Assembly (NCBI GenBank): GCA_963741925.1 | Contig: CAVUJU010000003.1 | Location: 79,281 to 143,280, forward strand | DNA from: an uncultured Acidobacteriota bacterium | GTDB taxonomy: Bacteria; Acidobacteriota; Thermoanaerobaculia; Multivoradales; DATKCC01 | DNA length: 64,000 nucleotides | Direction: 5' to 3' | Shown here: positions 5,770 to 64,000 of the stretch, piece by piece | Numbering within the stretch: the first letter of the stretch is position 1 | How the letters are laid out: every line of letters begins with the position of its first letter | The notes under the pieces: generated by a model | Database searches by the model: none | Told to the model about the DNA's origin: nothing | What the model saw: only the letters and a program-made list of their open reading frames with translations | Made by a program: the position numbers and the translations under genes

Positions 5770-5784
5770 GGCAGGCGAGACGGC

Positions 5785-9204: not shown

Positions 9205-9510
9205 GCTCTCCTCCAGATCGGCTGGGCCTCTGATTCGGTCGGCCCGGGTGCCCCGATGGCACTCGGGACCTGACCTCAGCCTAGGGAGCGGGACCGCCCA
9301 GACCGTGACGTTCTGGTGGCAGGAGCGTGAATTCCGCCGTCCTGCCGCGGGCCCTGGCCCGTGTCGTGACCGAGTCGTCGCCCCGCCGCGGCCGAGCGGC
9401 CCAGGCGCGCGAGCAGGGCCCGCCCCTCCGAGTCGGGAAGGTCGCGGGGGGGGGGGTGGGGCGGGCCGGAGCCGAAACCGCCGGCCCCGGCTCGCGAAGT
9501 GCCGGTACTC

Positions 9511-9671
9511 GTGACCCGTCAACCGTCAAGTGACCGGGTACCTGGCGAGGATTTCGCGTCGCTGGCCAGGCGCTCCGACGCAGGCGTAGCGGTGCCTACG
9601 TCGAGGAGGAGCAACGCGGCCAGCGGCGGGAGGGACCGCCAGGACACGTCACTTGACGGTTGACGGGTCAC
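9511..9671. repeat. Rod-like palindromic element (24-bp perfect arms, 113-nt imperfectly self-complementary spacer)
   Basis: GTGACCCGTCAACCGTCAAGTGAC (9511-9534) is the exact reverse complement of 9648-9671. Inner pairs are CCTGGCG/CGCCAGG and GCTGGCC/GGCCAGC, with an apical hairpin GGCGTAG-CGGTGC-CTACGTC at the centre. The right arm touches the stop of the Spy-like gene. Confidence 0.8.
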
Positions 9672-10210
9672 TAGGAGCCCATGGCCATCGCGCCGCCGCC
9701 GCCCGGCCGGCGGTGGCGGGGGCCGAAGGCCCGGCGGACCTCCTTCAAGATCTCCCAGCGCTCGGCCTGGGCCGGGGTGAGGAGGGCGGTGAAGGCGGTG
9801 TCGAAGCCGTCCCGGGCGGCCTTCACCTGGTCGCGGACGCCCCGGATCTGGATCACCAGGGCGCCGACCTGGGCGGCGTCGGGGTCGGCGCCCTCGAGCA
9901 GGTCGCCGAGCTGCCGGTGGAGCGTCGTCTCCTGCTCGCGCAGGGGTCGGACCGTCGTCCGGAGCTCGTCGAGGAGGGCCTTGGTCTGGTCGACCTGGTC
10001 GGCGGTGAGGTCGAGGAAGTCGGCGATGGGGCCGAGGGGGAAGTGGTGCGCTTCGGCGGTCTGGCCGTGGGGGCCTCCGGCCCCGGGCGGCAGCGCCCGG
10101 AGCGGCAGCGCGCACAGGACGAGCAGGGCGGCGACGGTGCAGAGGGCGGTCCGGGTCCGGACTCGGGTCCGGCCGGGGGCGGTGGGTCGGGAGCGGATCA
10201 TCGAGGACAT
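9671..10210 (-). CDS. Periplasmic Spy/CpxP-family (LTXXQ motif) protein
   Basis: C-terminal part of ORF 9671..12469. Signal peptide (ALCTVAALLVLCALPLRA) and two LTXXQ motifs (LTADQ, LTPAQ). AAGGAG lies at the first ATG. The second ATG at 10201 is an equally plausible start. Confidence 0.65.
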   Translation of the reverse strand: MSSMIRSRPTAPGRTRVRTRTALCTVAALLVLCALPLRALPPGAGGPHGQTAEAHHFPLGPIADFLDLTADQVDQTKALLDELRTTVRPLREQETTLHRQLGDLLEGADPDAAQVGALVIQIRGVRDQVKAARDGFDTAFTALLTPAQAERWEILKEVRRAFGPRHRRPGGGGAMAMGS

Positions 10211-10378
10211 CTCCTTTCGGTTCGTCGGCGGGGGCGGACGGTGCGTCGCCCCTTCGCCGGGTGGAACCCGCGGCGCGGCCGTTTCTTGCGCCGACCGGCG
10301 GGGACCCGGGCCGCCTGGTAGACTGCGCCCTCGAACCGACCGTCCGACCTGCCAGCCGTCGATGGACGGCAGCCGCCC

Positions 10379-12205
10379 GTGCTGAGAGTCATCTACGACG
10401 CCGCCCCCGCCGCCCCGCCGGGCGCGAGCCCGCCGCTCGCCGAGGCGCCGGCTACCTTCGCCGGAGGCTTTTACGCCGAGGAGCGCGAGGACTCGGAGGC
10501 CTTCCGCTGGATGGCCCTCGGCGGACGCCTCGGCTTCCCGGAGGCGCCGCCCGGCGCGGCGCTCGAGATGGGGGTGTTCTCCCCGTTCTACGACCTGTTG
10601 CAGACCCTCTCCGTCGAGGTCGGCGGCGAGCGCCACTCGCTCGAGCTGGTCCACGGCTGGGGCCAGGTCTCCGTGCCGGTGCCGGCCGGCGCGACCGAGG
10701 CGCGCCTCGTCGCGTCGAAACCGCTGCCCGCGGCCCATCACCCGGGCGATCCCCGGGAGCTCGCCGTGCGCGTCCGCTCCCCCCGGCTCCGCGCCGACCG
10801 GGCGCGTCACCTGAGCGTCGTCCGCCAGCACGCCAACGCCGTCCTCAACCTGCGCGAGATGCTCGAAGGCCGCGGCGAGCTCGCCTCGACCCCGACCAGC
10901 CTGGGCATCGACCTCCACGGCGTGTGCAACGTCAAGCCGCCGTGCGTCTACTGCGACTGGGACGCGAGCAAGGAGCTCGAGGGCGACGCCGTCGACGTGC
11001 CGTTCACCCGCGAGACGCTCGAGGAGTGGGGCGAGCTCTTCGAGAACGCCGCCGGGCTGGTCAACTGCTCGATCGGCGAGCCGTTCATGATGAAGGACCT
11101 GGACCGGGTGCTCGACGCCTTCGGCGAGCAGGGCAAGAGCCTGGAGATGGCGACCAACGGCCAGATCTTGACCGACCGGAACATCGAGAAGCTGCTGGGC
11201 CGGCGGATCCACCTCTACATCTCCCTCGACGCCGCCACCGCCGACACCTACGCCCGGCTGCGCAACGACAAGTTCGACCGCATCCTCGCCAACCTGCGCC
11301 GGCTGATCGCCGCCAAGGGGGGCCGGGACGGGCTGCCCAAGGTCCACATGGTGTTCATGCCCATGCGCGCCAACGTCCACGAGCTCGAGGCGTTCGTGCG
11401 CCTGTGCGCCGAGCTGGGGGTGGACCGGATGGTGCTGCGCCCGCTCAACTACAACGAGGCGACCGGCCTCGACTGGGTGAGGAACGGCTACCACTTCCGC
11501 TATGCCGACGAGCTCCTGCCCTGGGACGAGCTGGTGCGGGTGAGCGGCCGGGCGACGGAGCTTTGCCGGCGCCACGGCGTGGAGCTCTCGGACCAGATGG
11601 ACTTCGGCGGCATGGCGATGGCGACGGGGTTCGCCGCCGAGTACGAGCGCGGGCGCCGGGAGGCGGCGCTGCCGGACGCGGCGGCGGCGCCCGCGGGCCC
11701 GCCACGCCCGGAGGCCGAGCCGGCGCGCGCGGCCCCGGCTCCGCAGGGTTCTGGGATCCCGGCGCCGGCGGCCGGCGCGGCCCCGGCGCCGCCCGAGCCG
11801 CTGCCGTCGCTCGGCGAGGAGCGCCTGCCGGTCTGCCTCGAGCCCTGGAAGAGCCTCTACGTCCTGCGCCGGGGCATCCTGCCATGCTGTCACGGCTCGG
11901 CACCGCTCGCCGCCATGAACGAGTACCGCGAGACCTGGAACTCGCCCACCCTCCAGGGGATCCGGCGCGAGCTCGCCGCCGGCCGCTTCCACGAGTACTG
12001 CCTGAGCTCGGAGTCCTGCCCGATCGTCCGCAAGTGGCGCCACGCGACGCCGCCCGGCCGCTCGGACCGCGCCTTCCTGGCCTTGAAGCGCCTCTGGCAC
12101 GGCGTGGACCGCCTGGGCTTCGGCCTCCCCAAGCGCCTCGCCCGGCCGCTGCGCTCGCGGCTCCTCGCCCTCGCCCGCCGGGCGTCCGAGCTGGCCGGCG
12201 AGTGA
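10379..12205 (+). CDS. Radical SAM/SPASM-domain enzyme with ~170-aa N-terminal extension
   Basis: ORF 10379..12205 (GTG start). Cys cluster CNVKPPCVYC, then GEPFMM, MATNGQILT and YISLDAAT (radical SAM core). Cys-rich C-terminus: CLEPWKSLYVLRRGILPCCHG...CLSSESCP (SPASM-like). Confidence 0.75.
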   Translation: MLRVIYDAAPAAPPGASPPLAEAPATFAGGFYAEEREDSEAFRWMALGGRLGFPEAPPGAALEMGVFSPFYDLLQTLSVEVGGERHSLELVHGWGQVSVPVPAGATEARLVASKPLPAAHHPGDPRELAVRVRSPRLRADRARHLSVVRQHANAVLNLREMLEGRGELASTPTSLGIDLHGVCNVKPPCVYCDWDASKELEGDAVDVPFTRETLEEWGELFENAAGLVNCSIGEPFMMKDLDRVLDAFGEQGKSLEMATNGQILTDRNIEKLLGRRIHLYISLDAATADTYARLRNDKFDRILANLRRLIAAKGGRDGLPKVHMVFMPMRANVHELEAFVRLCAELGVDRMVLRPLNYNEATGLDWVRNGYHFRYADELLPWDELVRVSGRATELCRRHGVELSDQMDFGGMAMATGFAAEYERGRREAALPDAAAAPAGPPRPEAEPARAAPAPQGSGIPAPAAGAAPAPPEPLPSLGEERLPVCLEPWKSLYVLRRGILPCCHGSAPLAAMNEYRETWNSPTLQGIRRELAAGRFHEYCLSSESCPIVRKWRHATPPGRSDRAFLALKRLWHGVDRLGFGLPKRLARPLRSRLLALARRASELAGE

Positions 12206-50230: not shown

Positions 50231-53200
50231 GTGAAGGCCGGCAACCTGTCACGGGAGGAGTTGAGTCGCCTCGTCCGGCGGCTGGGCCAGGCCAGGGCGA
50301 AGGGGCGGGTCGAGACCGAGGCACCTGCGTCACGCGGCGAGGCCCGGCGGGGCGGGTCCCTGTCCTCGGCTCAGAAGCGGCTCTGGTTCCTCGACCGGCT
50401 CACTCCCGGCACGGCGGCGTACAACGTGCCTCTGGCGCTCCGGCTCCGGGGGAGGCTCGACGTCCGGGCCCTCGCCATCGGCCTGCGCGAGATCGTGCGC
50501 CGTCACGAGCCCCTCCGGAGCCGCGTCTCGGTGGTGGCGGGAGAGCTGGTGCCGGCGGCCCGGGGCGACGGCGCCGCGGCGCTGCCGGCGGTCGACCTCT
50601 CCGCCCTCCCGCGGGCGCGAGCCGAGGCGGAGGCCAGGGCGCTCGCCGCGGCGGGGGCCCGGCGGCCGTTCGACCTGGCCCGCGGTCCGCTCCTGCGCCG
50701 GGTCTCGATCCGGATCGCCCCGGAGGACCACCTCCTCCTCGTCGTGTTCCACCACATCGTGGTCGACGGCTGGTCGGTCGGGGTCTTCGTCGCAGAGCTC
50801 GCTTCGCTCTACACCTCCGCCTCTCGGGGGATGCGGCCGGCGCTGCCCGCGCTTCAGGCCTCCTACGCCGACTTCGTCGCCTGGGAGTCCGAGCGACTCG
50901 CCGGCCCGGGCCTGGCGCAGGATCTCGGCTACTGGCGCCGGCGGCTGGCCGGAGCGCCTCCCGTCTTGGTGCTGCCGGCCGACCGCCCGGCGCCGCCCGG
51001 GCGGCGAGACCGGCCCGGTGCCCACCTCTTCTTCGCCTGGCCTCCGGAGCTCGTGCGCTCTCTGTGCGCCCTCTCGCGCGAGCGCGGCACGACGCTCTTC
51101 GCCGTTCTGCTCGCGGCCTTCCACGCCCTGCTCGCCCGCCACTCCGGAAGCGACTCGCCGGTGGTGGGCACGCCGGTCGCCAATCGGCCGCGCCGTGAGC
51201 TCGAGGCCCTGATCGGATTGTTCGTGAACCACCTGCCTCTGCGCGGCGACCTCTCGGGCGATCCCTCGTTCTCCGAGCTCGTCGGGCGCGCCGCCGAGGG
51301 CTTTCTCGAGGCCCAGGCCCACGCGGTGCCGTACCAGCGGCTGGTCGAGGAGCTCCGGCCGCGGCGAGACCTCGACCATCCTCCGATCTTCCAGGTCCTG
51401 TTCGGGCTCCAGGACACCCCGCTCGGCGGCGGCGGCCTGCCCGGCCTCGAGACCGGGCTGATGGTGGTCGAGAGCGGGAGCGCCAAGCTCGATCTGGGCC
51501 TCGTTCTGGTCGAGCGGGAGGGTGGGCTGGAGGGGGACCTCGAGTACGACCGGGACCTCTTCGACCCGACCACGGCCCGCCGGTTGGCCGGCCACCTGCG
51601 GAACCTCCTCGCGGCGGCGGTGGCCGCGCCGGAGACGCCGGTGTCCCGCCTGCCCCTGCTCGCGGCCGGGGAGCGCCGGCAGCTTCTCGGCGAGTGGAAC
51701 GACACGGCGGCGGGGGATCCGGGCCGGCTCGCGGTCGAGGAGCTGTTCGCGGCGCAGGCGGCGAGGACGCCCGAGGCGGTGGCGGTGACGGCGGGAGGCT
51801 CGGCGCTCAGCTACCGGGAGCTCGAGCGCCGGGCGGCGGCGCTCGCCGGGTGCCTGCGGGCCGCCGGGGTCGGCCCGGAGACGCGGGTGGGCCTGTGCGT
51901 CGAGCGCTCGCTCGCCCTGCCGGTGGCGATGCTCGCGATCCTCGAGGCGGGCGGCGCTTACGTGCCGCTGGACCCGGGCTATCCCGCCGAGCGCCTGGGC
52001 TTCATGCTGGAGGACGCGGGCGTTTCGCTGCTGGTGGGGCCGGAGGAGCTGCTGGCGGCGCTGCCGGCCGGGGACCTGCCGGCGGTGCGGCTCGCCGCGG
52101 CCGGCCGCCGTCCGGCAGGCGGGGGGGCGGCGGCCGTGGCGCGGGCCGCTCGCGCGCCGGGGGGCGGCGAGCGCCTCGCCTACGTCATGTACACGTCGGG
52201 CTCGACGGGCCGGCCGAACGGGGTGGCGGTGGCGCACCGGGGGATCGTGCGCCTGGTGCGCGAGACCGGCTACGCGGAGCTCGGCCCCGGGGAGACCTTC
52301 CTCCAGCTCGCGCCGATCTCGTTCGACGCGGCGACGCTGGAGGTGTGGGGGCCGCTGCTGAACGGCGGGCGCCTGGCGCTGTGTCCGCCGGGGGTGCCGT
52401 CGGTCGCCGAGCTCGGGCGGACGCTGGCGGCGGAGCGGGTGACGGCGCTCCGGTTGACGGCGGGTCGGTTCCACCAGGTGGTCGAGGACGACCTGCCGGC
52501 GCTGGCCGGGCTGCGCCAGATCCTGGCCGGCGGCGACGTGCTGGCGCCGGGGGCGGTCGAGCGGGTGCTCCGGGAGGTGCCGGGGTGCCGGGTGACGAAC
52601 GGCTACGGGCCGACGGAGAACACGACCTTCACCACGACCCACGGCATGGCCGCGGAGGATGGGCGGGGGCGTTTCTTTCCCCCCGCGAGGGTTGGAAGGG
52701 GATCGAGAGGACGGGGGGCGGTCCGATCGATCCCCATCGGGCGGCCGATCGCGAACACCCGGGTGCACGTGCTCGACCGCGGCCTCGAGCCGGCGCCGAT
52801 CGGCGTGGCGGGGGAGCTGTGGGCGGCGGGGGCGGGGCTCGCGCGGGGGTACTGGGGGCGGCCGCGGCTCACCGCCGAGCGCTTCGCGCCGGACCCGTGG
52901 GGGGAGCGGCCGGGCGTGCGGCGGTACCGGACCGGCGACCGGGTCCGCCGGGTGGGGAGCGGCGAGCTCGAGTTCCTGGGACGGATCGATCAGCAGGTCA
53001 AGATCCGGGGCTTCCGGATCGAGCCCGGGGAGGTCGAGGCGAGCCTGGCCGGGGAGGCGCGGGTGGCGGCGGCGGTGGTGGTGGCGCGCAAGGACGCCCC
53101 GGGCGGGGGCCGGCTGGACGCCTACGTGGTGGCCGCCGCGGGCGCGGCCGCCGAGGGCCTCGGCGCAAAGCTCCGGGCGGAGCTGGCGCGCCGGCTTCCC

Positions 53201-56200
53201 GACTACCTGGTGCCGGCGACGGTGACGGTGCTCGCCGAGCTGCCCCTGACCCCGAACGGCAAGGTGGACCGGCGGGCGCTGCCGGAGCCGGAGGCGCGGG
53301 CGAGCGCCGCGGGCGCTCCGGCCTTCGAGGCGCCGCGGACGCCCACCGAGGAGACCCTGGCGGGGCTCTGGCGCGAGCTCCTCGGCGTCGAGCGCGTCGG
53401 CCGCCACGACGACTTCTTCGCCCTCGGCGGACACTCGCTGCTGGTGATCCGGCTGGTGGCCCAGCTGCGGGACAGGCTCGGGGTCGAGCTGCCGGTGCGG
53501 GCGGTCTTCGAGGCCCCGACTCTCGCGCGCCTCGCCGCCGTCGTCGAGGCGGCGCCGCGGACCGGGGTGCCGCCGATCCTGCGGGTGGCCCGGGACCGTC
53601 CGCTGCCGCTCTCGTTCTCGCAGGAGCGGCTCTGGTTCCTGGACCAGATGGAGCCGGGGCGCGCCGGGTACAACCTGCCGGCGGCGGTGCGGCTGACCGG
53701 CCGGCTCGAGGTGGCCGCCCTCGCCCGCGCCCTGGGCGAGATCGTCCGCCGTCACGAGGCGCTCCGCACCCGGTTCGCGCAGCGCGGCGGGAGCCCGGTA
53801 CAGATCGTGGACCCGGCCCCCTCGGCCGGCTCGGTCGGGCTCCCTCTCGTCGACCTCGCGCCCCTTGGCGAGGCGCGCCGGAGCCGGGTCGCTCGGGCCC
53901 TGGGGGAGAGCGAGGCGGCCCGCCCCTTCGACCTGGAGAGGGGCCCGCTGGTGCGGAGCCTGCTCGTGCGTCTCGGCCGCGAGGAGCACGTGCTGGTCGT
54001 GACCATGCACCACGTGGTCTCCGACGGCTGGTCGATCGGGGTCTACCTCCGCGAGCTGGGGGCGCTCTACGGAGCGTTTCGCGAGGGGCGGCCGTCGCCG
54101 CTGCCCGAGCTGCCGGTCCAGTACCCGGACTTCGCGGCCTGGCAGCGGGGCTGGCTCTCGGGCGCTCTGCTCGCCGGGCGGCTGGCGCACTGGCGCGAGC
54201 GGCTGGCGGGGGCGCCGGAGCTGCTCGAGCTGCCCACCGACCGGCCGCGGCCGCCGCTCCAGAGCGAGCGCGGCGGCCAGCTCGCCTTCCAGGTGGCGCC
54301 GGCGGCCGCGGGACGCCTCCGGGAGCTGGCCCGGCGCGAGGGGGCGACGCTCTTCATGGCGCTCCTCGCGGTCTTCGACGCGTGGCTCCACCGCGTGACG
54401 GGGAGCGGCGACCTGGTGGTGGGCTCGCCGGTCGCCGGGCGGGTGCGGCCGGAGATCGAGGGCCTGATCGGGTTCTTCGTCAACACTCTGCCGCTGCGGG
54501 TCGAGCTCTCGGGGCGGGAGAGCTTCCGCGAGCTCCTGGGGCGGGCCCGGGACGCCGCCCTCGACGCCTTCGAGCACGAGGACGTGCCGTTCGAGAAGCT
54601 GGTCGAGGAGCTGCGGCCGCGCCGCGATCCGGCGCACAGCCCGGTCTTCCAGGTGCTGCTGGCGCTCCAGAACGCCCCCATGGGACGCCGGGAGCTCCCG
54701 GGGGTCGCGTTCGAGCCCCTGCCGCTCGCCGGCCGCACGGCCAAGTTCGACCTGACGATGGTCTTCGTCGAGCGCCCGGACGGCGGCCTCGCCGGCGGGC
54801 TCGAGTACAACCGGGACCTCTTCGACCCGACCACGGCCCGCCGGCTGGCCGGCCACCTGCGGAACCTCCTCGCGGCGGCGGTGGCGGCGCCGGATCGACG
54901 GGTGGGTGAGCTGGCGTGTCTCGGCGCCGCCGAGCGCCAGCAACTGCGGGAGTGGAACGACTCGGCCCGGGCCTACGAAGCGGGGAGCGGGGCGACGGTC
55001 GCTTCGCTGTTCGCGGCGCAGGCCGGACGGACGCCGGATGCGGTGGCGGTGGTCGCGGGCGGCGAGGCGCTCAGCTACGGCGAGCTCGCGCGGCGTTCGG
55101 CGGCGCTCGGAAGGCATCTCGCGGCGCTCGGAGTGCGCGCCGAGGCGCGGGTGGCGATCGCCGCCGAGCGTTCTCTCGAGATGGTGGTGGGGCTTCTGGG
55201 CATCCTCCGGGCGGGCGCCGCCTACGTGCCCCTCGATCCCTCCTATCCGGCGCAGCGGCTGCGCGCCATGATCCAGGACTCCGGAGCCCGAGTGCTTCTC
55301 GTGCCCCGCTCGCTCGCCCGAATCGCGGCGACCGTCGCCTCGCAGGCGGCCGCCGGCCCGACGCTCGTCTGGCTCGAGGCGGCACCGGCGGAGGCGGGCG
55401 CGGCGCTGGGCGGGCCGGAGCCCACGGAGTCGCCGGCCGCGGCGGAGCGCCTCGCCTACACGATCTTCACCTCGGGCTCCACCGGACGGCCGAAGGGGGC
55501 CATGAACCCCCACGCCGCGGTGGTGAACCGGCTTCTCTGGATGGTCGAGGAGCTGGGGATCGACGCCGGAGAGCGGTTCCTGCAGAAGACGCCGTTCGGC
55601 TTCGACGTCTCGGCGTGGGAGCTGTTCGTGCCGCTGGTGTCCGGTGCACGCCTGGAGATGGCGCGGCCGGACGGGCACCGGGATCCGGCCTACCTCGCGG
55701 CGCAGATCGTCGAGCGCGGCGTGACGACTGCCCATGCCGTGCCCTCCATGCTGCGCGAGCTGCTCGAGGTGCCGGGAGTGGAGCGGTGCGCGGCGAGCCT
55801 CCGGCGGGTGGTGGCGAGCGGCGAGGAGCTGACGCCGGATCTGGTGCTGCGCTTCCACCGGCGGCTGGGTGGCCCGGACGGCGCGGGCGGCCCGGACCTC
55901 CTCGATCTCTACGGTCCGACCGAGACGGCGATCGAGGTCACGTGGTGGCGCTGCCCGCCTCCCGGGGCGGGGGGCGAGACCGGGCCGGCGCCGCCGGTTC
56001 CGATCGGGCGCCCGGTGGCCAACGCCGCGATCCAGGTGGCGGACGCCGCCCTGCGACCGGTTCCGGTCGGGGTCTCGGGGGAGCTGCTGATCGGCGGGCG
56101 GCCGGTGGGGCGGGGCTACGTCGGACGGCCGGCGCAGACGGCGGAGCGGTTCGTGCCCGACCCGGTCTCCGAGGCGCCCGGGGCCCGGGTCTACCGGAGT

Positions 56201-59200
56201 GGGGACCTGGCGCGCCGGCGTCCGGACGGCGTCGTGGAGTTCCAGGGGCGGATCGACCAGCAGGTCAAGGTCCGAGGGGTACGGATCGAGCTGGGGGAGA
56301 TCGAGAGCGCTCTCGGCGAGCTCCCCGGCGTGCGCCAGGCGGCGGTGCTGGCGACCCTCGCCTCGGAGGCGGTCGGGGACCGGCGCCTGGTGGCCTTCGT
56401 GGTGCCGGAGGCCGGCGCCGCGCTCGACGCCGAGGCCCTGCGGACGCGGCTCGCCGGCCGTCTGCCCGAGGCCATGGTGCCGGCCGTCCTCGTCCGGCTC
56501 GATGAGCTGCCGCTCCTGACCAGCGGCAAGGTGGACCGCCGCCGCCTCGCCGCGATGGCGAGCGAGGGGGGCTGGCGGCCGGCCGGCGCCGCCTACCGGG
56601 CGCCGGAGACCCCGGTCGAGACCGAGCTCGCGACCCTCTGGGGGGGCCTGCTGGGCGCCGCCGGAGAAGGCACAGGAGACGGCGAGGGTGCCGGCGGCGG
56701 CCTCCGGGTGGGCCGCGACGACGACTTCTTCGCCCTCGGCGGACACTCGCTGCTGGTCACCCGGCTGGTGGCGCGCCTGCGCGAGAAGCTCGGCGTGGAG
56801 CTCCCGGTGCGGGCGGTCTTCGAGGCCCCGACCCTCGCGCGCCTCGCCGCCGTCGTCGAGGCGGCGCCGCGGACCGGGGTGCCGCCGATCCTACGGGTGG
56901 CCCGGGACCGTCCGCTGCCGCTCTCGTTCTCGCAGGAGCGGCTCTGGTTCCTGGACCAGATGGAGCCGGGGCGCGCCGGGTACAACCTGCCGGCGGCGGT
57001 GCGGCTGACCGGCCGGCTCGAGGTGGCCGCCCTCGCCCGCGCCCTGGGCGAGATCGTCCGCCGTCACGAGGCGCTCCGCACCCGGTTCGCGCAGCGCGGC
57101 GGAAGCCCGGTACAGATCGTGGACCCGGCCCCCCCGGCCGGCTCGGTCGGGCTCCCTCTCGTCGACCTCGCGCCCCTTGGCGAGGCGCGCCGGAGCCGGG
57201 TCGCTCGGGCCCTGGGCGAGAGCGAGGCGGCCCGACCCTTCGACCTGGCGAGGGGCCCGCTGGTGCGGAGCCTGCTCGTGCGTCTCGGCCGCGAGGAGCA
57301 CGTGCTGGTCGTGACCATGCACCACGTGGTCTCCGACGGCTGGTCGATCGGGGTCTACCTCCGCGAGCTGGGGGCGCTCTACGGAGCGTTTCGCGAGGGG
57401 CGGCCGTCGCCGCTTCCCGAGCTGCCGGTCCAGTACCCGGACTTCGCGGCCTGGCAGCGGGGCTGGCTCTCGGGCGCTCTGCTCGCCGGGCGGCTGGCGC
57501 ACTGGCGCGAGCGGCTGGCGGGGGCGCCGGAGCTGCTCGAGCTGCCCACCGACCGGCCGCGGCCGCCGCTCCAGAGCGAGCGCGGCGGCCAGCTCGCCTT
57601 CCAGGTGGCGCCGGCGGCCGCGGGACGCCTCCGGGAGCTGGCCCGGCGCGAGGGGGCGACGCTCTTCATGGCGCTCCTCGCGGTCTTCGACGCGTGGCTC
57701 TACCGCGTGACGGGGAGCGGCGACCTGGTGGTGGGCTCGCCGGTCGCCGGGCGGGTGCGGCCGGAGATCGAGGGCCTGATCGGGTTCTTCGTCAACACTC
57801 TGCCGCTGCGGGTCGAGCTCTCGGGGCGGGAGAGCTTCCGCGAGCTCCTGGGGCGGGCCCGGGACGCCGCCCTCGACGCCTTCGAGCACGAGGACGTGCC
57901 GTTCGAGAAGCTGGTCGAGGAGCTGCGGCCGCGCCGCGATCCGGCGCACAGCCCGGTCTTCCAGGTGCTGCTGGCGCTCCAGAACGCCCCCATGGGACGC
58001 CGGGAGCTCCCGGGGGTCGCGCTCGAGCCCCTGCCGCTCGCCGGCCGCACGGCCAAGTTCGACCTGACGATGGTCTTCGTCGAGCGCCCGGACGGCGGCC
58101 TCGCCGGCGGGCTCGAGTACAACCGGGACCTCTTCGATCCGACCACGGCCCGCCGGCTGGCCGGCCACCTGCGGAACCTCCTCGCGGCGGCGGTGGCCGG
58201 GCCGGAGACGCCGGTGTCCCGGCTGCCGCTGCTCGCGGCCGGGGAGCGCCGGCAGCTTCTCGGCGAGTGGAACGACACGGCGGCGGGGGATCCGGGCCGG
58301 CTCGCGGTCGAGGAGCTGTTCGCGGCGCAGGCGGCGAGGACGCCCGAGGCGGTGGCGGTGACGGCGGGAGGCTCGGCGCTCAGCTACCGGGAGCTCGAGC
58401 GCCGGGCGGCGGCGCTCGCCGGGTGCCTGCGGGCCGCCGGGGTCGGCCCGGAGACGCGGGTGGGCCTGTGCGTCGAGCGCTCGCTCGCCCTGCCGGTGGC
58501 GATGCTCGCGATCCTCGAGGCGGGCGGCGCTTACGTGCCGCTGGACCCGGGCTATCCCGCCGAGCGCCTGGGCTTCATGCTGGAGGACGCGGGCGTTTCG
58601 CTGCTGGTGGAGCCGGAGGAGCTGCTGGCGGCGCTGCCGGCCGGGGACCTGCCGGCGGTGCGGCTCGCCGCGGCCGGCCGCCGTCCGGCAGGCGGGGGGG
58701 CGGCGGCCGTGGCGCGGGCCGCTCGCGCGCCGGGGGGCGGCGAGCGCCTCGCCTACGTCATGTACACGTCGGGCTCGACGGGCCGGCCGAACGGGGTGGC
58801 GGTGGCGCACCGGGGGATCGTGCGCCTGGTGCGCGAGACCGGCTACGCGGAGCTCGGCCCCGGGGAGACCTTCCTCCAGCTCGCGCCGATCTCGTTCGAC
58901 GCGGCGACGCTGGAGGTGTGGGGGCCGCTGCTGAACGGCGGGCGCCTGGCGCTGTGTCCGCCGGGGGTGCCGTCGGTCGCCGAGCTCGGGCGGACGCTGG
59001 CGGCGGAGCGGGTGACGGCCCTGTGGTTGACGGCGGGTCTGTTCCACCAGGTGGTCGAGGACGACCTGCCGGCGCTGGCCGGGCTGCGCCAGATCCTGGC
59101 CGGCGGCGACGTGCTGGCGCCGGGGGCGGTCGAGCGGGTGCTCCGGGAGGTGCCGGGGTGCCGGGTGACGAACGGCTACGGGCCGACGGAGAACACGACG

Positions 59201-62200
59201 TTCACCACCTGTCACGGCATGGCTGCGGCGGCGGAGGATGGGTGGGGGCGTCCCGCCGCGGTCCGGTCGATCCCCATCGGGCGGCCGATCGCGAACACCC
59301 GGGTGCACGTGCTCGACCGCGGCCTCGAGCCGGTGCCGATCGGCGTGGCGGGGGAGCTGTGGGCGGCGGGGGCGGGGCTCGCGCGAGGGTACTGGGGGCG
59401 GCCGCGGCTCACCGCCGAGCGCTTCGCGCCGGACCCGTGGGGGGAGCGGCCGGGCGTGCGGCGGTACCGGACCGGCGACCGGGTCCGCCGGGCGGGGAGC
59501 GGCGAGCTCGAGTTCCTGGGGCGGATCGACCAGCAGGTCAAGATCCGGGGCTTCCGGATCGAGCCCGGGGAGGTCGAGGCGAGCCTGGCCGGGGAGGCGC
59601 GGGTGGCGGCGGCGGTGGTGGTGGCGCGCAAGGACGCCCCGGGCGGGGGCCGGCTGGACGCCTACGTGGTGGCCGCCGCGGGCGCGGCCGCCGAGGGCCT
59701 CGGCGCAAAGCTCCGGGCGGAGCTGGCGCGCCGGCTTCCCGACTACCTGGTGCCGGCGACGGTGACGGTGCTCGCCGAGCTGCCCCTGACCCCGAACGGC
59801 AAGGTGGACCGGCGGGCGCTGCCGGAGCCGGAGGCGCGGGCGAGCGCCGCGGGCGCTCCGGCCTTCGAGGCGCCGCGGACGCCCACCGAGGAGACCCTGG
59901 CGGGGCTCTGGCGCGAGCTCCTCGGCGTCGAGCACATCGGCCGCCACGACGACTTCTTCGCCCTCGGCGGGCACTCGCTGCTCGCCACCCGCCTGGTCTC
60001 TCGCATCCGGTCCGCCCTCGACGTCGACCTGCCGCTCCGGAGCCTGTTCGAAGCGCCGACCGTGGCGGACCTGGCAGGGAGCGTCGAGGCCCTGAGGGGC
60101 GACCCGGCGGCGGTGCCGGTTCCGCCCATCCGGCGGCGAGCGCGGACCGGGCCCCTGCCGCTCTCCTACGCCCAGGAGCGTCTCTGGTTCCTGGACCGCT
60201 TCGAGCCGGGGAGCTCCGCCTACAACATCCCGGCCGCCTTCCGGCTCGACGGGCGCCTCGACCTGCCGGGCCTGGCCGCCGCGCTCTCCGGGGTGATTCG
60301 CCGGCACGAGGCCCTGCGCACGACCTTCGAGAGCGGCGAGGACGGCCCGCGGCAGGTGGTCGGCCCTCCCGTCTCCCTCGCCCCTCCCCTGGTCGACCTG
60401 CAGGCGGTGCTCGGGCCGGCGGCCCGGGCCGACGGCGTCGATCCGCGGCTCGAGGCCCTGGCGCGGGAGGAGGCGGAGCGGCCGTTCGACCTCGGGCGCG
60501 GACCGCTGGTGCGCGCCACCGTCCTGCGCCTCGCGCCGCGGCGCCACGTGGTCTTCCTGACCTTCCACCACATCGTCGCCGACGGTTGGTCGATCGGGAT
60601 CTTCGTCCGCGAGCTGGCGGCGCTCTACCGGACGGCCTCCGAGGGCCGGCCGTCGCCCCTGCCCGAGCCGCCGGTGCAGTACGGCGACTTCGCCTCGTGG
60701 CAGCGCGAATGGCTCGCCGGCGGCGAGCTCGAGCGCCAGCTCGGCTACTGGCGCGAGCGCCTCGCCGGCGCGCCGGAGGTTCTCGAGCTGCCTACCGACC
60801 GGCCGCGGCCGTCGGTGGCGACGCCCCAGGGGCGCCGCCGGGCCACGGCCGTCGACCGCCACGTGACCGACGGGCTGCGGCGCCTCGCCCGCGAGGAGGG
60901 GACCACGCTCTTCGCGGTCCTGCTGGCGGCCTTCGACGTCCTCCTGCACCGCTACAGCGGCCAGGACGACCTGGTGGTGGGCTCGCCCATCGCCAACCGC
61001 AACCGGGAGGAGATCGAGGGGCTGGTCGGCGTCTTCGTCAACACCCTGGCCCTGCGGGTCGACCTCGCCGGCGCTCCGGGATTCCGGGAGCTGATCGGGC
61101 GGGTGCGGAAGGCGACCGCCGACGCCTACAGCCACCAGGACCTGCCGTTCGAGAAGCTGGTGGCGGAGCTGCGGCCGGCCCGCAACCGCAGCCACTCGCC
61201 GATCTTCCAGGTGATGCTCTCGCTCCACGACCTGGGCCTCGTGCGCACCGAGCTGCCGGGCCTCGCCCTCGCCCCCCTCGAGGTGCGGGGCGCGACCGCG
61301 AAGTTCGACCTGACCCTCGCCCTCACAGAGACGCCGGACGGGCTGCGGGGCGTTCTCGGCTACCGCTCCGCCCTGTTCGACGCCACCACCGTGGAGCGCA
61401 TGGGGCGTCAGCTCGACACCCTGCTGCGCGGAGCGCTCGAGGATCCGGACCGCCCGCTCCGCGCCCTGCCGCTGCTCGCTCCCGGCGAGGCCCATCAGAT
61501 CCTCGTCGCCTTCAACGAGACGCCGGCCCTGCCGCCGGCCACGGGCCCCGACGATCTCCTGATCCATCGCCTCGTGGCGGCGCGGGCGGCCGCTTCGCCC
61601 GATGCCGTGGCCCTGGTGCTGGACGGCGACCACCTGAGCTACGGCGCCCTGGCGGCGCGCGCGAGCCGCCTCGCCCGGCGCCTGCGCGCCGCGGGAGCCG
61701 GCCCCGGCGAGCGGGTCGCGGTCTGTCTCGAGCGCTCGTTCGACCAGATCGTCGCGGTGCTCGGCGCCCTCGAGGCCGGCGCGGCCTACCTGCCCCTCGA
61801 CCTGGCCTTCCCGGCCGATCGCCTCGCCTTCATGGTGGCGGACGCCCGCCCGGTGGCCCTGGTCACCCGGAGCGAGCACCTGGAGCTCTTCTCCGGCCTC
61901 GGAGCGGCCGAGCGGCCGGCGCCGATCCTGGTCGAAGCCGGGCAGGTGGAGGTCGCCGGCGCCGGCCCCTCGCCGTCGCCGGACGACCCCGCGTACGTCA
62001 TCTACACCTCCGGCTCGACCGGGAGGCCGAAAGGGGTGCTGGTCGCCCACCGCTCGCTCGCCGAGCGGCTGGCGGCGATCCGGGAGCTCTTCGCGTTCGG
62101 CCCCGGCGACCGGCAGCTCCAGTTCGCGTCGCTCTCCTTCGACCTGTCGTGCGACGAGGTCTTCCTCACCCTGACCTCCGGCGCGTCGCTGGTGCTCGAG

Positions 62201-63499
62201 CCCCGGCCCCAGGCGCTGCGCCCCCTCGAGCTCCTCGACGAGTGTGCCCGCCACCGGGTGACCAAGCTGAGCCTCACGAGCTCGCACTGGCACCAGGTGG
62301 TGGACGAGATGACCGCCGCCGGGCGGCGCCTGCCGTCGTCGCTCCGGACCCTGGTGACCGGCGCCGAGAGCCCCTCGGCCGAGAAGCTCGCCGAGCTGGC
62401 GCGCCGCGCCGCCCCCGGCGCCCGGCTGTACAACTTCTACGGGCCGACCGAAGCCACGATCTCCGGCACCCGGTTGCCCCTGCCCCGGGAGGCGGAGGCG
62501 ATCGCCCGCTGCGCGCGGGTCCCCATCGGCCGCCCGTTCCGCGCGGTCCGGGTCTACCTGGGCGGCCCGGACCTGCAGCCGGTGCCGGTGGGAGTGGCCG
62601 GCGAGATCCTCCTGGGCGGCAGCGGCGTGGCGATCGGCTACCTGCGCCGGCCAGCCCTGAGCGCCCAGCGGTTCGTTCCCGATCCCTGGAGCCCGGTCCC
62701 GGGAGCGCGCCTCTATCGCACGGGCGACCTCGCGCGCCACCGCCCCGGAGGCGAGATCGAGTTCCTCGGCCGCGCCGACGCCCAGGTCAAGTTGCGCGGC
62801 TTCCGGATCGAGCTCGGGGAGGTCGAGGAGACCCTGCGCCAGCACCCCGGTCTCGGCGAGGCGGCGGCCGTCGTGCGCTCCGACGGGGGCGACCGCAGGC
62901 TGGTGGCGTACGTGGTGCCCGTGGCGTCCCGATCAGGAGGGCCGTCCGCGCCGCCGACGGTCAGCGAGCTGCGCGCCTACCTGGCCGAACGGCTCCCGGA
63001 GTTCATGGTGCCCTCGGCGCTCGTGACCCTCGACGCGCTGCCGGTGACGCCCACCGGCAAGGTCGACACGAAGGCCCTGCCCGCGCCGGACGGGTCGCGG
63101 CCCGAGCTGGCCGGCGCCTACGCGCCGCCCGAGACCCCCCTCGAGCGGTTCCTGGCCGGCGCCTGGCAGGAGGTGCTCAAGGTCGACCGGGCGGGCCTCG
63201 GCGACGGCTTCTTCGAGCTGGGAGGCGACTCGATCCAGGGCGCCACGCTGATCAACCGCCTGGAGGAGACCCTGGGCGAGCACGTCTACGTGACCGCGCT
63301 CTTCGACACCCGCGACCTGGGGAAGCTCGCCGCCTACCTCGCGGCCCACTACCCGGAGCGGGTGGCGGAAGCTCTTCGGCGCGGAGAGCCTGCCCGAGAC
63401 GGCGCGCCGGAGGGCGGCCCGGGCGGTCCGGCGGGTCGACGAGGAGCGCCTGGCCGAGCTGAGCGCACGGATCGAGCCGCTGGCGCCGTTCCCCGATGA
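50231..63499 (+). CDS. Non-ribosomal peptide synthetase, four modules C-A-T x4; coding continues in another frame into a sulfotransferase domain
   Basis: ORF 49970..63499. GTG 50231 is chosen because upstream residues are Arg/Pro/Ser junk. C-domain HHxxxDG motifs lie at ~50750, 54008, 57320 and 60566. A-domain (Y/F)TSGSTGRP(N/K)G motifs lie at ~52190, 55465, 58765 and 62000. PCP GG(H/D)S motifs lie at ~53427, 56738, 59967 and 63221. There are no E, MT or TE domains within the window. Confidence 0.92.
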   Translation: MKAGNLSREELSRLVRRLGQARAKGRVETEAPASRGEARRGGSLSSAQKRLWFLDRLTPGTAAYNVPLALRLRGRLDVRALAIGLREIVRRHEPLRSRVSVVAGELVPAARGDGAAALPAVDLSALPRARAEAEARALAAAGARRPFDLARGPLLRRVSIRIAPEDHLLLVVFHHIVVDGWSVGVFVAELASLYTSASRGMRPALPALQASYADFVAWESERLAGPGLAQDLGYWRRRLAGAPPVLVLPADRPAPPGRRDRPGAHLFFAWPPELVRSLCALSRERGTTLFAVLLAAFHALLARHSGSDSPVVGTPVANRPRRELEALIGLFVNHLPLRGDLSGDPSFSELVGRAAEGFLEAQAHAVPYQRLVEELRPRRDLDHPPIFQVLFGLQDTPLGGGGLPGLETGLMVVESGSAKLDLGLVLVEREGGLEGDLEYDRDLFDPTTARRLAGHLRNLLAAAVAAPETPVSRLPLLAAGERRQLLGEWNDTAAGDPGRLAVEELFAAQAARTPEAVAVTAGGSALSYRELERRAAALAGCLRAAGVGPETRVGLCVERSLALPVAMLAILEAGGAYVPLDPGYPAERLGFMLEDAGVSLLVGPEELLAALPAGDLPAVRLAAAGRRPAGGGAAAVARAARAPGGGERLAYVMYTSGSTGRPNGVAVAHRGIVRLVRETGYAELGPGETFLQLAPISFDAATLEVWGPLLNGGRLALCPPGVPSVAELGRTLAAERVTALRLTAGRFHQVVEDDLPALAGLRQILAGGDVLAPGAVERVLREVPGCRVTNGYGPTENTTFTTTHGMAAEDGRGRFFPPARVGRGSRGRGAVRSIPIGRPIANTRVHVLDRGLEPAPIGVAGELWAAGAGLARGYWGRPRLTAERFAPDPWGERPGVRRYRTGDRVRRVGSGELEFLGRIDQQVKIRGFRIEPGEVEASLAGEARVAAAVVVARKDAPGGGRLDAYVVAAAGAAAEGLGAKLRAELARRLPDYLVPATVTVLAELPLTPNGKVDRRALPEPEARASAAGAPAFEAPRTPTEETLAGLWRELLGVERVGRHDDFFALGGHSLLVIRLVAQLRDRLGVELPVRAVFEAPTLARLAAVVEAAPRTGVPPILRVARDRPLPLSFSQERLWFLDQMEPGRAGYNLPAAVRLTGRLEVAALARALGEIVRRHEALRTRFAQRGGSPVQIVDPAPSAGSVGLPLVDLAPLGEARRSRVARALGESEAARPFDLERGPLVRSLLVRLGREEHVLVVTMHHVVSDGWSIGVYLRELGALYGAFREGRPSPLPELPVQYPDFAAWQRGWLSGALLAGRLAHWRERLAGAPELLELPTDRPRPPLQSERGGQLAFQVAPAAAGRLRELARREGATLFMALLAVFDAWLHRVTGSGDLVVGSPVAGRVRPEIEGLIGFFVNTLPLRVELSGRESFRELLGRARDAALDAFEHEDVPFEKLVEELRPRRDPAHSPVFQVLLALQNAPMGRRELPGVAFEPLPLAGRTAKFDLTMVFVERPDGGLAGGLEYNRDLFDPTTARRLAGHLRNLLAAAVAAPDRRVGELACLGAAERQQLREWNDSARAYEAGSGATVASLFAAQAGRTPDAVAVVAGGEALSYGELARRSAALGRHLAALGVRAEARVAIAAERSLEMVVGLLGILRAGAAYVPLDPSYPAQRLRAMIQDSGARVLLVPRSLARIAATVASQAAAGPTLVWLEAAPAEAGAALGGPEPTESPAAAERLAYTIFTSGSTGRPKGAMNPHAAVVNRLLWMVEELGIDAGERFLQKTPFGFDVSAWELFVPLVSGARLEMARPDGHRDPAYLAAQIVERGVTTAHAVPSMLRELLEVPGVERCAASLRRVVASGEELTPDLVLRFHRRLGGPDGAGGPDLLDLYGPTETAIEVTWWRCPPPGAGGETGPAPPVPIGRPVANAAIQVADAALRPVPVGVSGELLIGGRPVGRGYVGRPAQTAERFVPDPVSEAPGARVYRSGDLARRRPDGVVEFQGRIDQQVKVRGVRIELGEIESALGELPGVRQAAVLATLASEAVGDRRLVAFVVPEAGAALDAEALRTRLAGRLPEAMVPAVLVRLDELPLLTSGKVDRRRLAAMASEGGWRPAGAAYRAPETPVETELATLWGGLLGAAGEGTGDGEGAGGGLRVGRDDDFFALGGHSLLVTRLVARLREKLGVELPVRAVFEAPTLARLAAVVEAAPRTGVPPILRVARDRPLPLSFSQERLWFLDQMEPGRAGYNLPAAVRLTGRLEVAALARALGEIVRRHEALRTRFAQRGGSPVQIVDPAPPAGSVGLPLVDLAPLGEARRSRVARALGESEAARPFDLARGPLVRSLLVRLGREEHVLVVTMHHVVSDGWSIGVYLRELGALYGAFREGRPSPLPELPVQYPDFAAWQRGWLSGALLAGRLAHWRERLAGAPELLELPTDRPRPPLQSERGGQLAFQVAPAAAGRLRELARREGATLFMALLAVFDAWLYRVTGSGDLVVGSPVAGRVRPEIEGLIGFFVNTLPLRVELSGRESFRELLGRARDAALDAFEHEDVPFEKLVEELRPRRDPAHSPVFQVLLALQNAPMGRRELPGVALEPLPLAGRTAKFDLTMVFVERPDGGLAGGLEYNRDLFDPTTARRLAGHLRNLLAAAVAGPETPVSRLPLLAAGERRQLLGEWNDTAAGDPGRLAVEELFAAQAARTPEAVAVTAGGSALSYRELERRAAALAGCLRAAGVGPETRVGLCVERSLALPVAMLAILEAGGAYVPLDPGYPAERLGFMLEDAGVSLLVEPEELLAALPAGDLPAVRLAAAGRRPAGGGAAAVARAARAPGGGERLAYVMYTSGSTGRPNGVAVAHRGIVRLVRETGYAELGPGETFLQLAPISFDAATLEVWGPLLNGGRLALCPPGVPSVAELGRTLAAERVTALWLTAGLFHQVVEDDLPALAGLRQILAGGDVLAPGAVERVLREVPGCRVTNGYGPTENTTFTTCHGMAAAAEDGWGRPAAVRSIPIGRPIANTRVHVLDRGLEPVPIGVAGELWAAGAGLARGYWGRPRLTAERFAPDPWGERPGVRRYRTGDRVRRAGSGELEFLGRIDQQVKIRGFRIEPGEVEASLAGEARVAAAVVVARKDAPGGGRLDAYVVAAAGAAAEGLGAKLRAELARRLPDYLVPATVTVLAELPLTPNGKVDRRALPEPEARASAAGAPAFEAPRTPTEETLAGLWRELLGVEHIGRHDDFFALGGHSLLATRLVSRIRSALDVDLPLRSLFEAPTVADLAGSVEALRGDPAAVPVPPIRRRARTGPLPLSYAQERLWFLDRFEPGSSAYNIPAAFRLDGRLDLPGLAAALSGVIRRHEALRTTFESGEDGPRQVVGPPVSLAPPLVDLQAVLGPAARADGVDPRLEALAREEAERPFDLGRGPLVRATVLRLAPRRHVVFLTFHHIVADGWSIGIFVRELAALYRTASEGRPSPLPEPPVQYGDFASWQREWLAGGELERQLGYWRERLAGAPEVLELPTDRPRPSVATPQGRRRATAVDRHVTDGLRRLAREEGTTLFAVLLAAFDVLLHRYSGQDDLVVGSPIANRNREEIEGLVGVFVNTLALRVDLAGAPGFRELIGRVRKATADAYSHQDLPFEKLVAELRPARNRSHSPIFQVMLSLHDLGLVRTELPGLALAPLEVRGATAKFDLTLALTETPDGLRGVLGYRSALFDATTVERMGRQLDTLLRGALEDPDRPLRALPLLAPGEAHQILVAFNETPALPPATGPDDLLIHRLVAARAAASPDAVALVLDGDHLSYGALAARASRLARRLRAAGAGPGERVAVCLERSFDQIVAVLGALEAGAAYLPLDLAFPADRLAFMVADARPVALVTRSEHLELFSGLGAAERPAPILVEAGQVEVAGAGPSPSPDDPAYVIYTSGSTGRPKGVLVAHRSLAERLAAIRELFAFGPGDRQLQFASLSFDLSCDEVFLTLTSGASLVLEPRPQALRPLELLDECARHRVTKLSLTSSHWHQVVDEMTAAGRRLPSSLRTLVTGAESPSAEKLAELARRAAPGARLYNFYGPTEATISGTRLPLPREAEAIARCARVPIGRPFRAVRVYLGGPDLQPVPVGVAGEILLGGSGVAIGYLRRPALSAQRFVPDPWSPVPGARLYRTGDLARHRPGGEIEFLGRADAQVKLRGFRIELGEVEETLRQHPGLGEAAAVVRSDGGDRRLVAYVVPVASRSGGPSAPPTVSELRAYLAERLPEFMVPSALVTLDALPVTPTGKVDTKALPAPDGSRPELAGAYAPPETPLERFLAGAWQEVLKVDRAGLGDGFFELGGDSIQGATLINRLEETLGEHVYVTALFDTRDLGKLAAYLAAHYPERVAEALRRGEPARDGAPEGGPGGPAGRRGAPGRAERTDRAAGAVPR
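51545..53400 (+). repeat. Intragenic duplication block X, copy 1 (end of C1 + A1 + most of T1)
   Basis: The protein is near-identical to 58135..59940 except for a handful of substitutions and the 33-nt repeat-length difference. Confidence 0.85.
52661..52733 (+). repeat. Diverged G-rich core repeat inserted in-frame in the A1 domain
   Basis: GGGCGGGGGCGTTTCTTTCCCCCCGCGAGGGTTGGAAGGGGATCGAGAGGACGGGGGGCGGTCCGATCGATCC encodes GRGRFFPPARVGRGSRGRGAVRS, between the YGPTE motif and IPIGRP. Confidence 0.75.
53495..54895 (+). repeat. Intragenic duplication block Y, copy 1 (end of T1 + C2)
   Basis: Near-identical to 56808..58205. The visible protein differences are S/P, E/A, H/Y and F/L. Confidence 0.85.
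53590..56860 (+). other. NRPS module 2 (C2-A2-T2); the A2 code is DVWHVSLIEK (Ser-like)
   Basis: FDVSAWE, TTAHAVPS, VVASGEE, DLYGPTETAIE. NRLLWM as in Ser-activating domains. Confidence 0.6.
56808..58205 (+). repeat. Intragenic duplication block Y, copy 2 (end of T2 + C3)
   Basis: See 53495..54895. Confidence 0.85.
58135..59940 (+). repeat. Intragenic duplication block X, copy 2 (end of C3 + A3 + most of T3)
   Basis: See 51545..53400. Confidence 0.85.
59240..59273 (+). repeat. Internally deleted remnant of the same repeat at the equivalent position of the A3 domain
   Basis: GGGTGGGGGCGTCCC + GCCGCGGTCCGGTCGATCC, i.e. both ends of the unit without its hairpins. It encodes GWGRPAAVRS. Confidence 0.65.
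60140..63350 (+). other. NRPS module 4 (C4-A4-T4); the A4 code is DLDSVGFISK (not recognised)
   Basis: FDLSCDE, TKLSLTSS, LVTGAES, NFYGPTEATIS. The PCP motif is GGDSIQ. Confidence 0.55.
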
Positions 63500-64000
63500 G
63501 ACCCGCGACCCGAACCCCCGGGCGATCTTCGTCCTCTCGCCGCCGCGCTCGGGCTCGACCCTGCTGCGGGTGATGCTCGCCGGCCACCCGCGGCTCTTCG
63601 CTCCGCCCGAGCTCGAGCTGCTCTCGTTCAACACGCTGGGCGAGCGCAAGCGGGCGTTCTCGGACCGCTACGCCTTCTGGCTGGAAGGGGTGCTCCGGGC
63701 CTTGATGGAGCTCCGGGGGTGCGACGCGGACGAGGCCCGCCGGATGATGGCGGAGCGCGAGCGCGCCGACCAGCCGGTGCGGGAGCTCTACCGCGAGCTC
63801 CAAGAGTGGATCGGCGACCGCATCCTGGTCGACAAGACCCCGTCGTACGCCCTCGACCCGGCGATTCTGGCGCGCGCCGAGGAGGACTTCGCCGAGCCCC
63901 TCTACCTCCACCTCCTGCGCCACCCATACGGCGGCATCCTGTCGTTCGAGGAGGCGCGGCTCGAGCAGCTCTTCTTCCGCTACGACCACGCCTTCGAGCG
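63375..64000 (+). CDS. Sulfotransferase domain (CurM/OLS activating-ST-like), a continuation of the NRPS after a 1-nt frame break; partial, runs off the window
   Basis: The frame with positions divisible by 3 reads LFGAESLPETARR...RAIFVLSPPRSGSTLLRVMLAGHPRLFAPPELELLSFNTLGERKRAF...ILVDKTPSYALDP...LYLHLLRHPYGGILSFEE. It has high GC3 and no stop to the end of the window. It is not listed in the ORF track. Confidence 0.75.

Follow-up and report, generated by a model that had tools for sequence, protein, structure and literature searches.

In the literature searched, sulfotransferase (ST) domains embedded in nonribosomal peptide synthetases (NRPSs) were found only in the glycerate-loading modules of cyanobacteria, which are also the only NRPS-embedded STs linked to a product. 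The examples are the loading modules OciA, of the cyanopeptolin/oscillapeptin pathway, and DysB, of the dysinosin pathway; both contain an ST and are associated with sulfated glyceric acid (PMC2533009, PMC6520454). An ST followed by a thioesterase (TE) was found only in polyketide synthases (PKSs), namely CurM, the olefin synthase (OLS) and haliamide. The further precedent, SulN, acts in trans: in sulfazecin biosynthesis, the peptide bound to the peptidyl carrier protein (PCP) is N-sulfonated by SulN before it is cyclised by the TE of SulM (PMC11298585). The present analysis concerns the last gene of a 64,000-nucleotide stretch from an uncultured Acidobacteriota bacterium (contig CAVUJU010000003.1), referred to below as the window. 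This gene is a single NRPS with four modules of condensation (C), adenylation (A) and PCP domains, followed by a linker, an ST and a TE.

The ST of this gene shares with the CurM ST (PDB 4gbm) and the OLS ST (PDB 4gox) the fold and subfamily, the loops for 3'-phosphoadenosine 5'-phosphosulfate (PAPS), the equivalents of Glu60 and Lys133, and the location, with a carrier domain before it and a TE after it. In contrast to both, its context is a pure NRPS without ketosynthase or ketoreductase domains, the position of CurM His62 is occupied by Glu, and the domain appears to fall into a separate clade of NRPS STs; the TE, in turn, has no sequence-level relation to the CurM TE. With OciA and DysB the common feature is an ST directly behind an NRPS carrier domain, and Nostoc loci of the same architecture fall among the relatives of the window ST in a neighbor-joining (NJ) tree. 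The product-linked function of OciA and DysB is a retained sulfate ester (PMC2533009, PMC6520454). However, they are initiation modules (FkbH/GA-type glyceric acid loading) followed by a C domain, whereas in the window the ST stands between a terminal, amino-acid-activating module and a TE. Sulfazecin resembles the arrangement proposed here in that PAPS-dependent sulfonation of a peptide on its PCP immediately precedes the action of the TE at the end of an NRPS. There, SulN acts in trans on the beta-amine of diaminopropionate (Dap), the nucleophile of the SulM TE is the Cys of a Gln-Cys-Asn motif and DVWEMNADDK is the specificity code. In the window, the ST is in cis, the TE nucleophile is Ser (GSSMGG) and A4 carries the code DLDSVGFIS.

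The carrier-ST-TE terminus of the NRPS

The features of the gene are listed below. The frame break was located through DNA alignment with the two closest related loci, L005 and L015.

50231..63499, + strand: NRPS frame, four C-A-PCP modules (Condensation, AMP-binding and PP-binding each matched four times in Pfam)
60155..61504, + strand: C domain of module 4 (HHIVADG), the best Pfam Condensation stretch, residues 3396-3845 of the open reading frame (ORF) starting at 49970
61560..63061, + strand: A domain of module 4, start approximate, with code DLDSVGFIS and AMP-binding_C at residues 4284-4364
63128..63352, + strand: PCP4, the fourth of four Pfam PP-binding matches, also seen in the translation
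63369..63370, + strand: frame break caused by an extra A (GAAG, GAG in relatives), from DNA alignment with L005 and L015
63371..63506, + strand: PCP-ST linker of about 45 residues, LFGAESLPETARRRAARAVRRVDEERLAELSARIEPLAPFPDETR, conserved across the PCP-ST family in the alignment
63507..64000, + strand: N-terminal 164 residues of the ST, cut by the window edge (PF13469; alignments to 4gbm and 4gox)

The part of the ST inside the window scored 53.6 bits against Pfam Sulfotransfer_3 (PF13469; cut-off 27) and matched the CurM ST with E = 1.3e-38 and the OLS ST with E = 2.3e-36. When the domain was completed with the contig's own protein P0257, described below (PF13469, 58.2 bits), both matches extended from end to end (4gbm, E = 2.1e-62; 4gox, E = 5.2e-61), and the next PDB match followed only at E = 0.003. 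Identity to these closest solved homologs was about 48%. NCBIfam was found to contain no dedicated model for the domain. Judged by these alignments, the domain is a CurM/OLS-type PAPS sulfotransferase and would be expected to bind PAPS. The residues concerned are as follows, with CurM numbering taken from the 4gbm alignment (offset 3).

63540-63560, + strand: 5'-phosphosulfate loop PPRSGST, invariant in 83 relatives, CurM and OLS
63609-63611, + strand: Glu equivalent to CurM Glu60 (4gbm alignment)
63615-63617, + strand: Glu replacing CurM His62 (4gbm alignment)
63835-63837, + strand: Lys equivalent to CurM Lys133 (4gbm alignment)
63918-63920 and 63942-63944, + strand: Arg and Ser of the 3'-phosphate motif (RHPYGGILS, 63918-63944), invariant in 83 relatives, CurM and OLS

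In a column census, the equivalents of R39, T43, E60, K133 and RHP...S were all present in the window and invariant in the 83 relatives. In CurM, Arg39 and Thr43 reportedly belong to the 5'-phosphosulfate loop, and Glu60 and Lys133 are reported to be catalytic (McCarthy et al. 2012). At the position of His62, in contrast, the 83 NRPS STs carried Glu in 72 cases, Asp in 9 and His in none.

Beyond the window edge, the sequence is known as protein only, from two records of the same contig (P0257 and P0137). P0257 (582 aa) was found by a protein search with the ST/TE tail of L005, and its first 142 residues are identical to the translation of window positions 63573-64000. It continues with the rest of the ST, a linker, a Thioesterase domain (PF00975, 111 bits; VGSSMGG, GDH) and a stop. 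The window gene therefore has the composition (C-A-PCP)4-ST-TE.

The best PDB match of the P0257 TE, covering nearly the whole domain, was the TE of AB3403 from Acinetobacter baumannii (4zxh, E = 1e-25). AB3403 was also the best match for the TEs of L015 and L004 (E = 1e-25 to 1e-38 for the three), followed by NRPS4, EntF, Pks13, FAS and NocB, and 15 ST-linked TEs aligned well to it, including the lid region. AB3403 itself has no ST and has a Cys nucleophile (GWCFGG, from the alignment and PMC11298585), where the window TE has Ser. The CurM TE (3qit) was absent from the 48 PDB sequences matched by the window TE (phmmer, all PDB, E <= 10). An exhaustive HMMER search of 1.84 billion representatives was also performed with the window TE, and the 150 best relatives were kept. 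Among these, 101 had sufficient sequence upstream of the TE to be judged: 84 had no ST before the TE and 17 had an ST directly before it, the ST-less ones including TEs at 44–48% identity to that of the window. Because the domain is AB3403/EntF-like and its nearest relatives mostly lack an ST, it is, on sequence grounds, a generic NRPS release domain and not a specialised partner of the ST. Two of the TE relatives, P0326 and P0327, are large NRPSs with an additional ST far upstream (residue ~583 or ~2145) besides the one before the TE.

The start of the NRPS is uncertain, with GTG at 50231 (GAGGGG upstream) and GTG at 49970 (longest ORF) as the two candidates; the third-position G+C content (GC3) of the frame is 0.94. 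The 9-residue codes of the A domains were read by motif-anchored alignment to the A4–A5 segment of GrsA. They were Val-like for A1 (DALRLGGTF), Ser-like for A2 (DVWHVSLIE) and again Val-like for A3 (DALWLGGTF). The code of A4, DLDSVGFIS, is neither Ser- nor Thr-like; it is identical in the ortholog L005 and reads DLDSCGFIS in L015 and P0293. None of the code strings was matched in the literature search. C1 looks like an ordinary elongation domain, since it is 51–56% identical to C2–C4. C2 and C3 are 97% identical and the codes of A1 and A3 differ at one residue, and by sequence the stretch 50231-63499 carries an internal duplication. The phosphopantetheine Ser of PCP4 (GGDS in FFELGGDSIQG, with FFELGGDS at residue 4327) is encoded at 63230-63232. 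PCP1–3 have the motif GGHS, while PCP4, which precedes the ST, has GGDS, as in the whole PCP-ST family.

These results agree with a large part of the first-pass annotation of the window. It had described a CurM/OLS-type PAPS sulfotransferase fused to the last PCP across a 1-nt break near 63367-63377, and the break was located at the extra A between 63369 and 63370. It had likened the domain to STs that sit between a carrier and a TE, and this position was shown here by P0257, which runs from ST through TE to a stop. The last A code, to which it could give no specificity, has still received none. Its remark that such offloading is known from PKSs and not from a pure C-A-PCP NRPS also held, as no characterised pure NRPS ending in PCP-ST-TE was found in the literature searched.

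Relatives of the PCP-ST unit

A scan of species-representative genomes with the PCP-ST alignment yielded at least 511 loci, the window being one of them. These loci are unstudied and come mostly from uncultured Acidobacteriota (Thermoanaerobaculia, Holophagales, Blastocatellia) and Chloroflexota. The two closest, L005 and L015, are metagenome-assembled genomes (MAGs) of Acidobacteriota. In L005 the PCP-ST region is 84% identical, and the NRPS is 80% identical and colinear over residues 985-4386, with the same C-A-PCP-ST-TE order. Identity to L015 amounts to 81% in PCP-ST and to 64% overall. This locus has an uninterrupted ORF (125..12184) ending in C-A-PCP-ST-TE (PF13469, 89.6 bits; PF00975, 109.5 bits), followed by a second NRPS gene.

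For a survey of the family, 84 loci were annotated with tblastn domain probes. The region after the ST was visible in 76 of the 84 loci. It was an in-frame C domain in 58–59 cases and a TE in 17, while one locus had a short tail and a stop, so that in about 77% of the informative loci the ST stands in line before a C domain. In most loci with an A domain upstream of PCP-ST, its code was Thr-like (DFWNIGMVH), Ser-like (DVWHISLVD) or Tyr-like (DASTVAAVC). Rarer codes were Hpg-like, Dap-like (DIWEI-ADD, in L041) or, in Chloroflexota, Ile/Val-like, and a further group had no assignment (DALVVGCIF, DGFFHGEIW, DVENVGVIL and, in the clade of the window, DLDS[VC]GFIS). ST-TE termini behind Thr or Ser modules were seen in L028, L039, L049, L050, L073, P0312, P0324 and P0331. 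Termini of the PCP-ST-TE type are not unique to the window and recur in many uncultured Acidobacteriota.

In the NJ tree, which was built on the N-terminal ~155 residues, midpoint-rooted and without support values, CurM and OLS lay outside a single NRPS-ST clade that held the window and the Nostoc loaders. The ST subclades followed the specificity of the upstream A domain, and the ST-TE cases were spread over at least six subclades. Since the subclades co-vary with the upstream A specificity, the ST would appear to act on the residue of its own PCP, the tree being crude. No A domain is present in the Nostoc and Scytonema members, which are arranged as FkbM-...-PCP-ST-C-A-PCP-(E), where E is epimerization, a layout which matches the published sulfated glyceric acid loaders DysB and OciA.

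In L041 (Anaerolinea sp. MAG, ~8000-11300), an in-line PCP-ST-C unit stands behind an A domain with the Dap-like code DIWEI-ADD (cf. DIWEITADDK), and by its sequence it may be an in-cis counterpart of the SulN-type N-sulfonation of diaminopropionate. The known Dap codes are DVWEMNADDK and DIWEITADDK (PMC11298585 supplement). Stand-alone PCP-ST proteins also exist, with tails of the ...REEWEI type, ahead of C-A-PCP-TE proteins bearing a TubC_N domain. In Thiothrix nivea (L003, 10001-15509 and 18139-21290), such a protein of 429 aa has the C-terminal end ...EEREEWEI; the protein encoded next is C-A-PCP-TE and bears a TubC_N docking domain. An A-PCP-ST-C-A-PCP-nitroreductase NRPS and two more sulfotransferase genes are found at this locus too.

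Sulfated nonribosomal peptides are rare. The terminal PCP-ST-TE arrangement in a pure NRPS appears to be uncharacterised, as does the larger A(Thr/Ser/Tyr)-PCP-ST-C family of Acidobacteriota and Chloroflexota, in which a CurM-type ST is wired behind Thr, Ser, Tyr or unassigned modules, whether in line or immediately ahead of the TE. The window NRPS is still an assembly of known components, each presumably in the role it has in its known relatives. The family offers a sequence handle for the mining of sulfated or sulfate-activated peptides. It also raises the question of whether the same ST fold serves as a decorator or as an installer of a leaving group, depending on its neighbour.

Proposed fate of the transferred sulfate

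The reading considered probable, though by no means secure, is that sulfonation takes place in cis on PCP4, that the sulfate is kept and that the sulfated peptide is released by the TE in the ordinary way. The ST would use PAPS and act on the intermediate held by PCP4, most probably on a hydroxyl or amino group in the side chain of the C-terminal residue, which A4 loads. The transferred sulfo group would remain in the product, and the Ser-type TE (GSSMGG) would accept the sulfated peptide and release it by ordinary hydrolysis or cyclisation. The ST would thus be a modular add-on behind a PCP, as in the glycerate loaders OciA and DysB, and not one half of a CurM-type ST-TE cassette. A tailoring role is suggested because the STs of the clade stand mostly in line before C domains, behind Thr, Ser or Tyr modules or in glycerate loaders. 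The first-pass annotation had named a sulfated short peptide as one of two possible products, and by analogy with OciA/DysB and with the in-line ST clade this now appears to be the better supported one.

Several points weigh against sulfate retention. It was argued only from OciA and DysB, no product being known for the non-cyanobacterial members. The order carrier-ST-TE is exactly that of CurM and OLS, whose STs are the closest solved homologs. A sulfatable group on residue 4 is assumed, the code of A4 being without assignment. The TE motifs of the window clade are unusual (HAVFGDTYFF and VGSSMGG, compared with HPxGG and GGWSxGG in relatives), which could reflect a special function. Finally, the separation of the NRPS STs from CurM and OLS comes from the midpoint-rooted tree mentioned above, which was built on about 155 residues and carries no support values.

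The alternative in general terms is that the sulfate at the PCP-ST-TE terminus is a transient leaving group. The residue next to the thioester would be sulfonated, with a TE-coupled decarboxylative elimination to a C-terminal enamide, a beta-elimination to a dehydro residue, or a cyclisation of an N-sulfonated side chain to an N-sulfo-lactam as the following step. Taken as a whole, this is judged unlikely. If true, a leaving-group sulfate would mean a new type of release chemistry for NRPSs, one common among uncultured Acidobacteriota, and an N-sulfo-lactam would extend the logic of the monobactams.

In its decarboxylative form, the beta-hydroxyl of the C-terminal residue would be sulfated as in CurM and OLS, and hydrolysis by the TE would be followed by decarboxylation and elimination of sulfate, yielding a C-terminal enamide or vinyl group. 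This was the other product put forward in the first-pass annotation; it is not favoured as the leading idea and is regarded as rather improbable, in view of the generic TE, the exchange of His62 and the in-line clade of NRPS STs. The domain order is identical and the two activating STs with solved structures are the closest homologs of the window ST; moreover, other ST-TE termini follow Thr or Ser modules, which place a beta-hydroxyl exactly where that of CurM lies. However, 3qit was not matched where more than 40 other TEs were, and the TE relatives mostly occur without an ST. The residue corresponding to His62 is Glu or Asp in 81 of the 83 NRPS STs and Glu in the window, and CurM and OLS lie outside the NRPS-ST clade of the tree. 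Most STs of the clade precede C domains, where decarboxylation is impossible, and the A4 code resembles neither those for Ser nor those for Thr.

More doubtful still is a release in which the sulfate serves as a leaving or activating group without decarboxylation, either by beta-elimination to a dehydroamino acid or by displacement or TE cyclisation of an N-sulfonated amine, as with SulN and SulM. The acidic residue at position 239 (D) of A4, together with Ser278, is reminiscent of Lys/Orn-type codes. Related ST-TE termini bear the codes DVENVGVIL, DVENTGVIS, DMETYGNIF and DMENAGSIM, and the in-line ST of L041 stands behind a Dap-like code. Sulfazecin provides a precedent, as the N-sulfonation of the PCP-bound peptide comes before TE cyclisation (PMC11298585). 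In contrast, the window TE has Ser (GSSMGG) and lacks Gln-Cys-Asn, A4 is not Dap-like, and no direct evidence of elimination was found in any member. By the criteria of PMC11298585, a SulM-like monobactam terminus in particular was rejected because of the motif of the TE and the code of A4.

The frame break and the genomic surroundings

The NRPS frame (start mod 3 = 2) reads ...PETPLERFLAGAWQEVLKVDRAGLGDGFFELGGDSIQGATLINRLEETLGEHVYVTALFDTRDLGKLAAYLAAHYPERVAE near its end, then Arg/Gly/Pro-rich nonsense up to TGA 63497-63499, which terminates it because of the frameshift. From 63294 up to the window edge, no stop interrupts the frame with start mod 3 = 0, which reads ...KLFGAESLPE..., the conserved linker and ...LVDKTPSYALDP...LLRHPYGGILSFEE. 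At the break site, the window has GCGGAAGCTC, compared with GCGG-AGCTC in two related loci, and the extra A moves the reading from the first of these frames to the second. After correction, the junction reads ...AAHYPERVAELFGAESLPE..., and 21 homologs run through the PCP-ST junction in one frame in the protein alignment. L005 bears an extra A of its own about 40 nt upstream of the site in the window, and L015 bears none.

As judged from these alignments, the extra A at 63369/63370 is most likely an assembly indel that artificially splits the gene. This is favoured because an intact, unshifted relative exists in L015, because sequence conservation is complete both before and after the break, and because the SMC gene of the window lies in two frames and the next NRPS breaks off early. 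An indel is also preferred to a pseudogene or a programmed frameshift since the insertions in the window and in L005 are independent and lie at different sites, L015 having none. The SMC gene occupies two overlapping frames, 36536-39091 (−) and 38355-40424 (−), with the N- and C-terminal halves of SMC_N. This split is probably a second single-base indel in the window and lends weight to the idea of frameshift errors in the assembly. The remaining overlapping ORF pairs of the window were likewise considered as additional frameshifts and rejected, as they are ordinary separate genes.

It is very unlikely that the frameshift is real, in which case a recent pseudogene or a truncated NRPS without ST-TE would be present and the arrangement would make nothing in the organism. 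The break does stand in the sequence as given, and the NRPS product has no protein record although its contig neighbours have one, which would fit annotation as a pseudogene. However, GC3 is 0.94–0.95 and the motifs are fully conserved on both sides, the extra A of L005 lies elsewhere and L015 is unbroken, and the SMC gene and the next NRPS are also broken, as commonly seen with indel errors in long-read assemblies of MAGs. The idea of an independent tailoring gene that happens to lie next to the NRPS, for which stand-alone PCP-ST proteins such as that of Thiothrix nivea could be cited, is effectively refuted: the ST frame cannot be a gene of its own because it has no ATG, GTG or TTG ahead of the PPRSGST loop, the first being GTG-ATG at 63570-63575 within the domain, the conserved linker spans the break, and homologs, including the intact L015, cross the junction in a single frame.

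Protein P0137, also from this contig, comprises the N-terminal C domain of a next NRPS and is 78% identical to its counterpart in L005. The called protein runs out of frame and stops after 462 aa, which suggests a further indel. This C domain has HHLVADLWS instead of HHxxxDG and is 40–43% identical to C1–C4. Because it is more divergent than C1 (51–56%), the downstream NRPS may, to judge by sequence, act first and the ST-TE protein last. With a second NRPS downstream, the released peptide may exceed four residues.

Upstream of the NRPS lie housekeeping genes at 41083-47577 (+), encoding a PyrR-like phosphoribosyltransferase, aspartate carbamoyltransferase, dihydroorotase, a SuhB-like inositol monophosphatase and an M23 peptidase, and a divergently transcribed FG-GAP/ASPIC protein at 47676-49868. 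These genes place the left border of the cluster at about 49.9 kb. No gene for PAPS supply was visible in the window. The Inositol_P gene at 44751-45605 was considered as a CysQ/PAP phosphatase and rejected, as it is more SuhB-like and scored below all curated cut-offs. A group II intron (34916-36381, +) adjoins the 3' end of smc. It contains a reverse transcriptase/maturase ORF at 34916-36289 (RVT_1 and GIIM) and an Rfam Intron_gpII domain V/VI match at 36301-36381 (57 bits).

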